This document shows, piece after piece, positions 4,468 to 5,415 of a stretch of 64,000 nt of DNA; the stretch's first letter is position 1, and every line of letters begins with the position of its first letter. The translations under genes and the position numbers were made by a program. The notes under the pieces were generated by a model that was given only the letters and a program-made list of their open reading frames with translations, had not been told where the DNA came from and did not search any database. The DNA comes from a phage, in assembly GCA_036930585.1 (NCBI GenBank), contig GCA_036930585.1_3066.1; one strand, given 5' to 3'.

Positions 4468-4543
4468 TGGTCGAGGCAGTAGGGATCGAACCTACGACCC
4501 AGGACTTAGAAGGTCCTTGCTCTTCCTTCTGAGCTATGCCTCG
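4468..4543 (-). tRNA. tRNA-Arg (anticodon UCU)
   Basis: Hand-folded: acceptor CGAGGCA/TGCCTCG, anticodon loop CUUCUAA, T-arm GGTTCGATCC, discriminator A, encoded CCA. Confidence 0.85.
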
Positions 4544-4547
4544 TAAT

Positions 4548-4623
4548 TGGGGTGACCGATGGGAGTCGAACCCATGACTACGAGAATCACAATCTCGAGT
4601 TCTACCAACTAAACTACGGCCAC
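4548..4623 (-). tRNA. tRNA-His (anticodon GUG)
   Basis: Acceptor GTGGCCG/CGGTCAC (one G-U), anticodon stem CGAGA/TCTCG, loop UUGUGAU, discriminator C, CCA encoded; no encoded G-1. Confidence 0.65.
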
Positions 4624-4717
4624 ATTAATACCTACTCCAACAATCAAGATGTCTTCACACGAAATTAAGAGAAGAGTGATCAGTTCAACCCCGATAATCG
4701 CGTCAAGTAGATATTAA

Positions 4718-4733
4718 TGTGACAATTGTCACA
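4718..4733. repeat. perfect 16-bp palindrome TGTGACAATTGTCACA (CRP-consensus-like; also an RNA hairpin)
   Basis: In the 114-bp gap between tRNA-His and tRNA-Asn, 4 nt from the 3' end of tRNA-Asn. Confidence 0.5.
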
Positions 4734-4737
4734 AATT

Positions 4738-4812
4738 TGGCGGACGTGATAGGATTCGAACCTATAACCAATCGCTTAACAGGCGATCGCTCTGCCATTG
4801 AGCTACACATCC
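4738..4812 (-). tRNA. tRNA-Asn (anticodon GUU)
   Basis: Acceptor GGATGTG/CACGTCC, D-stem GCTC/GAGC, anticodon stem ATCGC/GCGAT, loop CUGUUAA, discriminator G, CCA encoded. Confidence 0.7.
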
Positions 4813-4816
4813 AAAT

Positions 4817-4903
4817 TGGTGGGGAGTGATGGAGTCGAACCACCCGAGTCGCAATGACAATGGATTTACAGTCCACACCGCTACCTCTACGGGATAACTC
4901 CCC
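4817..4903 (-). tRNA. tRNA-Tyr (anticodon GUA), long variable arm
   Basis: 87 nt; acceptor GGGGAGT/ACTCCCC, anticodon loop CUGUAAA, long variable arm, T-loop TTCGACT, discriminator A, CCA; D-arm pairing irregular. Confidence 0.6.
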
Positions 4904-4916
4904 TTAATTCTTAATT

Positions 4917-4991
4917 TGGTGGCCCTGGGTGGAATTGAACCACCATCTGGCGATTATGAGTCGCTTGCTTGAACCTTCCAGCTACAGGGCC
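4917..4991 (-). tRNA. tRNA with CAU anticodon (Ile2/lysidine-type, or Met)
   Basis: Acceptor GGCCCTG/CAGGGCC, anticodon loop CUCAUAA, discriminator A, CCA; anticodon arm resembles bacterial tRNA-Ile2. Confidence 0.65.
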
Positions 4992-4992
4992 T

Positions 4993-5068
4993 TGGTGCTG
5001 ATTGACGGAATCGAACCGCCGACCTTCTCATTACAAGTGAGTTGCTCTACCTACTGAGCTAAATCAGC
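4993..5068 (-). tRNA. tRNA-Thr (anticodon UGU)
   Basis: Acceptor GCTGATT/AATCAGC, D-stem GCTC/GAGC, anticodon loop CUUGUAA, T-loop TTCGATT, discriminator A, CCA. Confidence 0.8.
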
Positions 5069-5073
5069 AAAAC

Positions 5074-5163
5074 TGGCGGAGGCGATAGGATTTGAACCTA
5101 TGAGTCGCCGGAGCGACTGCCGGTTTTCAAGACCGGTGCATTAAACCACTCTGCCACACCTCC
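5074..5163 (-). tRNA. tRNA-Ser (anticodon UGA), long variable arm
   Basis: 90 nt; acceptor GGAGGTG/CGCCTCC, anticodon stem CCGGT/ACCGG, loop CUUGAAA, discriminator G, CCA. Confidence 0.8.
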
Positions 5164-5165
5164 AG

Positions 5166-5239
5166 TCTCCATACAAGGATTTGAACCTTGGACCTCCTGA
5201 TCCCAAATCAGGCGCTCTACCAAACTGAGCTACACGGAG
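5166..5239 (-). tRNA. tRNA-Pro (anticodon UGG), CCA not encoded
   Basis: Acceptor CTCCGTG/TATGGAG (two G-U), anticodon stem CCTGA/TCAGG, loop UUUGGGA, discriminator A; 2 nt from tRNA-Ser. Confidence 0.75.
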
Positions 5240-5249
5240 TAAATTAAAT

Positions 5250-5323
5250 TGGAGCGGATAATGAGAATCGAACTCACATCATCAGATTGGAAGTCTGAGG
5301 TAATGCCATTATACGATATCCGC
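5250..5323 (-). tRNA. tRNA-Gly (anticodon UCC)
   Basis: Acceptor GCGGATA/TATCCGC, anticodon stem TCAGA/TCTGA, loop CUUCCAA, discriminator U, CCA. Confidence 0.8.
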
Positions 5324-5328
5324 AAATT

Positions 5329-5415
5329 TGGTGCGAGAAGTGGGACTCGAACCCACAAGGAAATCATTCCGCAGCATTTTAAGTGCTGTGCCTTTACCAA
5401 TTTGGCCATTCTCGC
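5329..5415 (-). tRNA. tRNA-Leu (anticodon UAA), long variable arm
   Basis: 87 nt; acceptor GCGAGAA/TTCTCGC, anticodon stem CAGCA/TGCTG, loop CUUAAAA, T-loop TTCGAGT, discriminator A, CCA. Confidence 0.8.

Follow-up and report, generated by a model that had tools for sequence, protein, structure and literature searches.

The 64,000-nucleotide (nt) stretch of phage DNA analyzed here (NCBI GenBank assembly GCA_036930585.1, contig GCA_036930585.1_3066.1; below, the window) carries a cluster of ten transfer RNA (tRNA) genes that very probably represents the standard tRNA cluster of Tequatrovirus, in one of several circulating allelic layouts that have been shaped by homing endonuclease genes residing in, or targeting, tRNA genes. 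This layout appears to be a composite of three parts, namely, a left half, Leu-Gly-Pro-Ser-Thr, that is common to phage T4; a T2-type right half, consisting of an Ile2-type tRNA with the CAU anticodon, tRNA-Tyr, tRNA-Asn, tRNA-Arg and an open reading frame (ORF) of 116 amino acids (aa), hereinafter ORF116, to which a module of a structured RNA and tRNA-His would have been added; and a free-standing HNH endonuclease gene that seems to have taken the place of tRNA-Gln at the 5' end of the cluster. Under this scenario, homing endonuclease genes would have produced the differences from T4, as has been shown experimentally for crosses between T4 and T2L. The original prediction from this sequence, in which the cluster was described as a T4 tRNA repertoire remodeled without change to the structural genes, is partly supported: its facts are right, but their significance was overstated and the direction of the change was partly reversed.

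Exactly ten tRNA genes were found by ARAGORN in the 64-kb window, all of them encoded by the minus strand at positions 4468-5415 and transcribed in the order Leu-Gly-Pro-Ser-Thr-CAU-Tyr-Asn, followed by a gap of 114 nt (4624-4737) and then His-Arg. Strand, order, anticodons and gap match those previously folded by hand, and the Rfam tRNA model (RF00005) also places all ten above its gathering score, nine of them at 60-74 bits (E values of 1e-11 to 1e-15). The CAU tRNA has as its best E. coli match an annotated tRNA-Ile (81.6% identity over the full length) and is therefore of the Ile2 type, with the same role as the tRNA-Ile of T4 but a different allele. The lowest score, 30.2 bits against a cut-off of 29, belongs to tRNA-Tyr with its long variable arm, for which independent support comes from 98% identity (85 of 87 positions) to the tRNA-Tyr of T6, an RNA that has been observed by northern blot and by fragment sequencing (PMC13096335). 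That pseudo-tRNAs or chance cloverleaves are included among the ten, which would make the difference from T4 partly an artefact, is extremely improbable. The marginal score of tRNA-Tyr and the lack, in tRNA-His, of the bacterial G-1 identity element could be read in this way, but two independent tools call all ten genes, the His, Asn and Tyr genes included, and these three are 97-100% conserved across many phages; furthermore, the T6 homolog of tRNA-Tyr is expressed (PMC13096335), and the tRNA-His of T5, for which U-1 is annotated as well, can be converted to an effective amber suppressor according to its GenBank record.

The T4 reference genome (NC_000866) has, as stated in the original prediction, eight annotated tRNAs, arranged as Gln-Leu-Gly-Pro-Ser-Thr-Ile, segB, Arg-rnaD-rnaC. 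The window does not conform to this canonical set, in which Gln is present, Tyr, Asn and His are missing, and segB separates Ile from Arg: both the ARAGORN calls and the alignment with T4 bear out the presence of Tyr, Asn and His and the absence of Gln. The locus is otherwise that of the Tequatrovirus cluster: the trna.2-4/ipI side and the e-gene side border it, the strand is the same, the Leu-Gly-Pro-Ser-Thr core is in place, and rnaD and rnaC follow. Genomic position, flanks, core, rnaD and rnaC are common to T4 and the window, at about 87-100% identity. By segment, identity to T4 is 93-98% in the flanks (which thus were correctly called near-T4), in the Leu-Thr stretch and in rnaD/rnaC, with 93-94% for the flanks bordering the cluster, and the five core genes are 96-100% identical per gene and lie in the same order. 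What sets T4 apart is the presence of Gln, the absence of the HNH gene, and the combination of its own Ile allele, segB and its own Arg allele in place of CAU-Tyr-Asn-element-His-Arg-ORF116.

Twelve nt into the CAU tRNA, homology to T4 ceases, to be regained at the first bases of rnaD (~4099), with none in between; the T4 block comprising the rest of tRNA-Ile, segB and tRNA-Arg is thus the counterpart of the window block comprising the rest of the CAU tRNA, Tyr, Asn, the spacer, His, Arg and ORF116. Neither alignment nor BLAST detected homology to T4 segB in the window. The alleles within the block point to T2: the CAU tRNA and tRNA-Arg are 65-74% identical to their T4 and T6 counterparts and 100% identical to those of T2, so that, of the tRNAs that the original prediction had regarded as common to T4, the Leu-Gly-Pro-Ser-Thr set stands, whereas the CAU tRNA (65% to T4) and tRNA-Arg (74%) do not. 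The Tyr and Asn genes are 99-100% identical to those of T2, and by segment, identity to T2 is 97.6-100% for CAU-Tyr-Asn and for Arg. ORF116 is present in T2 (89% identity), phage G50 and slur14 and absent from T4. T2 and T2L further resemble the window in having no segB and an identical tRNA-Asn; T2 differs from it by keeping Gln, by the absence of the HNH gene, by an ORF of the GIY-YIG type, without the catalytic head, in the place of Thr, and by the absence of both the structured RNA and tRNA-His. G50 is 97-100% identical to the window in every segment except the HNH cassette.

The origin of this difference is known from experiment. T2L, RB1 and RB3 have no segB and carry tRNA-Met(CAU), Tyr, Asn, a different Arg and two ORFs, and the preferred cleavage site of SegB lies inside the tRNA-Asn gene of T2L (PMC2330249). 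Of the progeny of crosses between T4 and T2L, ~94% inherit segB, and ~1250 bp of the T2L region are excluded, such that homing of segB eliminates the Met/Tyr/Asn/Arg/ORF region of T2L (PMC2330249, Brok-Volchanskaya et al. 2008). Because the tRNA-Asn of the window is identical to that of T2, the phage analyzed here should itself be a target of SegB. It is likely, then, that the difference in Tyr, Asn and His arose because T4 carries a spreading segB block that replaced a block bearing Tyr and Asn, which is the reverse of the direction originally envisaged; the only change on the side of this phage is the loss of Gln, and for that gene, the notion of a remodeled repertoire holds. The stretch Tyr-Asn-element-His is complete in 187 of the phage records searched (see below), compared to 126 records with a T4-type segB, and hence the eight-tRNA set of T4 is a minority arrangement.

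At the other end of the cluster, homology to T4 and G50 ends after nt 7 of tRNA-Gln and restarts exactly at the first base of tRNA-Leu (alignment with T4, slur14 and G50). The intervening ORF, which was correctly placed where Gln would be expected, stops 6 nt before tRNA-Leu, matches the family phrog_14736 ("HNH endonuclease") with 412 bits over its full length, and retains in its translation an intact catalytic motif (beta-beta-alpha-metal) with the flanking Cys pairs (CAIC...DH...N...CPNCH). The gene was detected in 64 phage records, at 97.9-100% identity and in one copy each, compared to 446 records with an intact Gln-Leu junction; in all three records inspected (slur14, CM8 and JEP6) it occupies the Gln site. 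The gene thus shows presence/absence polymorphism at a single locus among close relatives, together with conservation exceeding that of its surroundings, the pattern characteristic of free-standing homing endonuclease genes. The nearest relatives outside the T-even phages are HNH enzymes of the T5 group, with a core ~48% identical to F-TflIV, the hegA product of the T5 relative BF23, and the hegA, hegC and hegD genes of T5 are likewise located among tRNA genes. By the logic of SegB, the HNH gene would have entered at tRNA-Gln and would spread by cutting Gln-bearing genomes; the replacement of Gln by HNH offers a natural test case.

A 24-aa helix-turn-helix-like motif at the C-terminus of the HNH protein (window 5422-5550; DYSKFGWVSKAAKIIGISPQKARK) recurs in the GIY-YIG enzyme of phage CM8 (2700-2800 of the CM8 stretch analyzed; DFSKRGELSKYAKHIGVSHTQAKR; E value of 2e-4 in pairwise BLAST), which hints at a common DNA-binding module carried by different nuclease heads. 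A DNA-binding tail common to the HNH protein, T4 SegB and the 133-aa ORF of T2, a possibility prompted by phrog_16521, was considered and rejected, given that pairwise BLAST yielded nothing significant with SegB or with the T2 ORF.

A megablast search with the region 3700-6200 against 50,697 phage records matched 1,127 of these, mostly T4-like phages of Escherichia and Shigella. None of the records is identical to the window over this region; the best matches are slur03, slur08 and slur14, at 97.5% identity over the full length. The layout itself is far from peculiar to this phage: slur03, slur14 and vB_EcoM_ACG-C40 (97.2-97.5% identity over 98-100% of the region) have the same HNH gene, the same ten tRNAs in order, the spacer before His and ORF116, and differ from the window by point differences only. 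The RefSeq annotation of slur14 lists an HNH endonuclease followed by these ten tRNAs and a 116-aa ORF, and for ACG-C40, "10 tRNAs" between 68,043 and 68,989 bp, a span of 947 bp, were published in 2012 (PMC3347319). The finding as first stated therefore adds little: the ten-tRNA layout is already annotated in many Tequatrovirus genomes, SegB homing was identified in 2008 as the origin of the T4/T2 difference, and work from 2024-2026 established the biological role of the additional tRNA-Tyr. The locus is, rather, a worked example of how homing endonuclease genes, and not codon adaptation alone, decide the tRNA content of a phage.

Comparison with other relatives reveals several further layouts. 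G50 has eleven tRNAs, namely, Gln and the ten of the window, and no endonuclease gene. In CM8, a GIY-YIG gene takes the place of tRNA-Pro. In T2, the place of tRNA-Thr is taken by a 133-aa ORF (2763-3164 of the T2 stretch analyzed) that shows homology to the CM8 GIY-YIG enzyme in the C-terminal half of the latter (33% identity over 115 aa, E value of 8e-16) and lacks the catalytic domain; it has the appearance of a homing endonuclease remnant that has lost its head. Both the HNH gene and segB occur in the cluster of JEP6, and T6 has segB after Tyr and is missing Pro and Ser, without an ORF in their place. In UFV-AREG1, a 184-aa ORF with a T5orf172/MUG113 domain follows Arg, in place of ORF116, and is another nuclease-like insertion. 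The tRNA cluster thus emerges as a hotspot for inserted endonuclease-type genes, in line with the genome-wide association of segB homologs with tRNA genes (PMC13096335).

An alternative explanation is that the repertoire reflects mainly an adaptation of codon supply, with Tyr, Asn and His gained and Gln lost to the benefit of translating the AT-rich genes of the phage in its host, and with the endonuclease genes as incidental passengers; we consider this unlikely, although part of the codon statistics agrees with it. When the 18,894 codons of 70 long ORFs from the window are compared with the 14,748 codons of 42 annotated genes of E. coli K-12, the phage shows the strongest over-use for AGA (9-fold), ATA (6-fold), TCA (4-fold), GGA (3.9-fold), ACA (3.5-fold), ACT (3.4-fold), AAT (3.2-fold) and TTA (3.1-fold); these and TAT (2.3-fold) are all read by tRNAs of the cluster, that is, most of the cluster tRNAs read the codons that the phage over-uses most relative to E. 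coli. Tyr and Asn, furthermore, are among the three amino acids most enriched (1.6-fold). Among the A-ending codons that the T4 tRNA set targets, CAA (Gln) shows the lowest enrichment (1.6-fold), which fits with Gln being expendable. His, however, is the most depleted amino acid (0.52-fold; CAT 0.77-fold, CAC 0.27-fold), and for this reason codon supply does not explain tRNA-His; the codon comparison suggested along with the original prediction is thus in agreement with tRNA-Tyr and tRNA-Asn and fails for tRNA-His. Other evidence also speaks against codon supply as the main cause: in most of the layouts inspected, a missing tRNA coincides with a nuclease-type ORF at the same spot (Pro and Ser of T6 being the exception), the alternative layouts are all found in phages of E. 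coli and Shigella, hosts with the same codon usage, and the T4-type block displaces the T2-type block by the action of SegB rather than through fitness (PMC2330249). As a separate observation, Lys is strongly enriched as well (1.6-fold), although the cluster contains no tRNA-Lys.

Another possibility, which we would entertain without favoring it, is that the extra tRNAs are kept chiefly for counter-defense, replacing host tRNAs that are destroyed by tRNA-cleaving immunity. The case for it is best for tRNA-Tyr. The Septu system cleaves tRNA-Tyr; T6 escapes through an amplified tRNA-Tyr gene, and infection under Septu is rescued when the T6 tRNA-Tyr is over-expressed or amplified, whereas T4, which "lacks a tRNA-Tyr gene", cannot escape (PMC13096335). 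The tRNA-Tyr of T5 resists retron-Eco7 owing to its variable loop (as stated in PMC13096335), such that in both T6 and T5 this tRNA acts against host defense in addition to reading codons. Apart from its near-identity to the T6 gene, the window tRNA-Tyr has a variable arm and a T arm identical to those of T5 tRNA-Tyr, and counter-defense could also accommodate a tRNA-His that codon demand leaves unexplained. For Asn and His, however, a literature search for defense systems that target either tRNA during infection of E. coli by phages returned nothing relevant in bacteria, and the anticodon loop of tRNA-His matches that of hisR. Presumably, the Asn and Tyr tRNAs of the phage also have host-like anticodon loops, and mutations suggestive of evasion are not apparent in these loops. 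Moreover, Septu also cleaves the tRNA-Tyr of T6.

In addition, rV5-like phages (V5, inoa and phiWec191) have a tRNA-Tyr that matches the one in the window at 95.7% identity, and the tRNA-Tyr of T5 matches it at ~85%, whereas that of E. coli is presumably dissimilar; these identities suggest a phage-specific lineage of tRNA-Tyr that may have been exchanged among unrelated coliphage families.

Returning to homing endonuclease genes as the agents that shaped the cluster, several points, besides the depletion of His, weigh against this scenario. The Pfam HNH model scores 17.3 bits on the HNH protein, under its gathering cut-off of 21.4, and no obvious co-conversion tract was seen in the few HNH flanks compared; cleavage by the HNH protein, a target in the Gln region and preferential inheritance of the gene are all inferred from the comparison of genomes alone. 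The codon comparison, which was used to weigh the alternative, is limited to 64 kb of phage DNA and 50 kb of E. coli DNA. Finally, T6 joins a CAU allele of the T4 type with tRNA-Tyr and segB, a combination implying that both block lineages may once have had Tyr, and either of the two right-hand blocks may be the ancestral one.

The 114-nt gap, which the original prediction had treated as empty, in fact holds a conserved structured RNA. The spacer folds with an energy of -30.7 kcal/mol (z = -3.5), and the element within it is a three-way junction in which a 13-bp helix joins both ends and a short conserved hairpin accompanies a hypervariable interior. Elements of 94-106 nt with this architecture are found directly 5' of tRNA-His in three genera of Tevenvirinae, Tequatrovirus, Karamvirus and Jiaodavirus, and in related viral and metagenomic contigs; there are at least four versions with unrelated interiors, all of which fold with an end-joining helix of 13-14 bp. 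In an alignment of ten sequences, the 17 pairs examined (13 in the terminal helix and four in the hairpin) are formed in 97.6% of the cells, compared to 34-49% with slid partners, 8 of the 17 show changes in both partners (matched by 1 of 500 shuffles), and the covariation score is 0.50, compared to 0.25 in the shuffles (reached by none of the 500), all of which is to be read with the caveat that the ten sequences are related and that the structure was derived from the same sequences. The presence of G.U pairs on the tRNA-sense strand indicates that the structure forms in RNA rather than in DNA. A covariance model built from the T4-like elements scores 103.8 bits on the window element. In UFV-AREG1, tRNA-His has been lost and the structured element kept (39-817 of the AREG1 stretch analyzed).

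The T4-like records inspected all lack an annotation for the element, and an Rfam search of 3700-6200 with E values up to 1 identified only tRNAs and tRNA-derived noise, with no family for the spacer element, rnaC or rnaD. A hammerhead, hepatitis delta virus (HDV)-like or theta ribozyme was considered and rejected, the junctions being incompatible with the hammerhead core and no Rfam ribozyme model giving a match; a degenerate tRNA was rejected as well, given that neither ARAGORN nor Rfam calls one in the spacer and that the element folds into a three-way junction with a 13-bp closing helix. Within the same transcribed spacer, the palindrome TGTGACAATTGTCACA takes a hairpin fold, with arms that are conserved and a center that varies in slur14, G50 and AREG1; Karamvirus has no more than its right half. 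It resembles either a site for CRP or a processing hairpin.

The terminal helix of the element ends 1 nt before tRNA-His, a gene that is distinctive in its own right. The combination of G-1 with C73 is the major histidine identity element of bacteria, in which G-1 positions the critical 5' phosphate (PMC9976931), and E. coli hisR has G-1. The window copy and all related phage copies inspected have C73 and the GUG anticodon, but position -1 is a T (window 4623-4624), that is, the genome-encoded G-1 opposite C73 of a bacterial-type tRNA-His is missing. The closest parallel comes from T5, where the curated record annotates a tRNA-His with a 5' U abutting rnaIII, a stable RNA of 106 nt with a 12-bp terminal helix (3207-3390 of the T5 stretch analyzed). 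In both phages, then, an RNA of ~100 nt with an end-joining helix lies directly 5' of a tRNA-His with U-1; furthermore, T5, like the window, has HNH endonuclease genes among its tRNA genes, in addition to the similarity between the tRNA-Tyr genes described above. T5, on the other hand, is a member of another virus family, and its cluster is organized differently. With default filters, the covariance model of the element gave no match to T5 rnaIII; with the filters off, a weak full-length match falls exactly on rnaIII (11.2 bits, E value of ~0.1 in a search of 801 nt), and because this match is weak, the likeness is positional and architectural, with homology unproven. A literature search on stable RNA and tRNA of bacteriophage T5 returned nothing.

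It is conceivable, although we regard it as rather improbable, that the 94-nt RNA and tRNA-His constitute a single two-part module common to T4-like phages of three genera and to T5-like phages, in which the leader helix governs the cutting of the 5' end, for example, by causing RNase P to leave U-1, or controls the maturation or charging of tRNA-His. If this were the case, tRNA-His would have a non-translational or counter-defense role. A structured RNA paired with a tRNA-His that lacks G-1, recurring in two unrelated phage families, could matter more than the layout of the cluster, and the pair provides a handle on the long-unexplained "stable RNAs" of the T4 and T5 tRNA clusters. Separately, metagenome contigs contain tRNA arrays (Ser-AGA, Thr-AGT, Val-TAC, Gly-GCC, His and Lys) with a tRNA-His that has the same 5' half and no structured element; there, a single T (…CCAT|GTGGCC) separates tRNA-His from the tRNA before it. 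Anticodons with A34, such as those in these arrays, are unusual for bacteria.

The cluster appears to be part of a single transcription unit (Table 1). By analogy with T4, one transcript would start from a middle-type promoter and run through the HNH messenger RNA (mRNA), the tRNAs, the ORF, rnaD and rnaC to a terminator, and the tRNAs would be excised by host RNase P and by processing of their 3' ends. The putative promoter stretch is conserved in T4, slur14 and G50, and, by its likeness to the T4 consensus, would be a MotA-dependent middle promoter. The hairpin downstream of rnaC probably marks the end of the unit. T4 segB stops 5 nt before tRNA-Arg, akin to the distance between the HNH stop codon and tRNA-Leu, and with stop codons only 5-6 nt upstream, both endonuclease mRNAs would be severed from the tRNA precursor by the 5' processing of the next tRNA.

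Table 1. Features of the tRNA cluster and its surroundings, in order of transcription (window coordinates)
Feature	Positions	Strand	Evidence and remarks
Putative T4-type middle promoter	6113-6137	-	TGCTTTA 6131-6137, 12-nt spacer, TATTAT 6113-6118; from sequence
tRNA-Gln stump TGGGAAT (first 7 nt)	6037-6043	-	Alignment with T4 and G50
HNH endonuclease gene, free-standing, 202 aa	5422-6030	-	phrog_14736; replaces tRNA-Gln from nt 8 to end
tRNA-Leu(UAA)	5329-5415	-	ARAGORN and Rfam; 99% identical to T4 gene
tRNA-Gly(UCC)	5250-5323	-	ARAGORN and Rfam; 99% identical to T4 gene
tRNA-Pro(UGG)	5165-5239	-	ARAGORN and Rfam; 100% identical to T4 gene; CCA not encoded
tRNA-Ser(UGA)	5074-5163	-	ARAGORN and Rfam; 99% identical to T4 gene; CCA encoded
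tRNA-Thr(UGU)	4993-5068	-	ARAGORN and Rfam; 96% identical to T4 gene
CAU tRNA, Ile2 (lysidine) type, T2 allele	4917-4991	-	ARAGORN and Rfam; 100% to T2, 65% to T4 tRNA-Ile
tRNA-Tyr(GUA)	4817-4903	-	ARAGORN and Rfam; 98% to T6, 99% to T2
tRNA-Asn(GUU)	4738-4812	-	ARAGORN and Rfam; identical to T2 gene
Perfect 16-nt palindrome TGTGACAATTGTCACA, hairpin with 6-bp stem and 4-nt loop	4718-4733	-	Sequence, fold
Structured RNA element, 94 nt, directly 5' of tRNA-His	4624-4717	-	Fold, conservation, covariation
tRNA-His(GUG), C73, T at -1	4548-4623	-	ARAGORN and Rfam; 79% identical to E. coli hisR
tRNA-Arg(UCU), T2 allele	4468-4543	-	ARAGORN and Rfam; 100% to T2, 74% to T4
ORF116 (116 aa), part of T2-type block	4099-4449	-	phrog_3355, 180 bits
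T4 rnaD counterpart (species 2 stable RNA)	3983-4099	-	87% identical to T4 annotation; T4 homology resumes
T4 rnaC counterpart (species 1 stable RNA)	3838-3976	-	98.6% identical to T4 annotation
Terminator-like hairpin and T run	3764-3787	-	10-bp stem with 7 G-C pairs, then TTTTT

Small differences are also seen at the 3' ends of the core tRNA genes. The CCA end of tRNA-Ser (5074-5076) is encoded in the window, G50 and slur14 and not in T4, and that of tRNA-Pro (5165-5166) is unencoded in the window, G50, slur14 and T4 alike.

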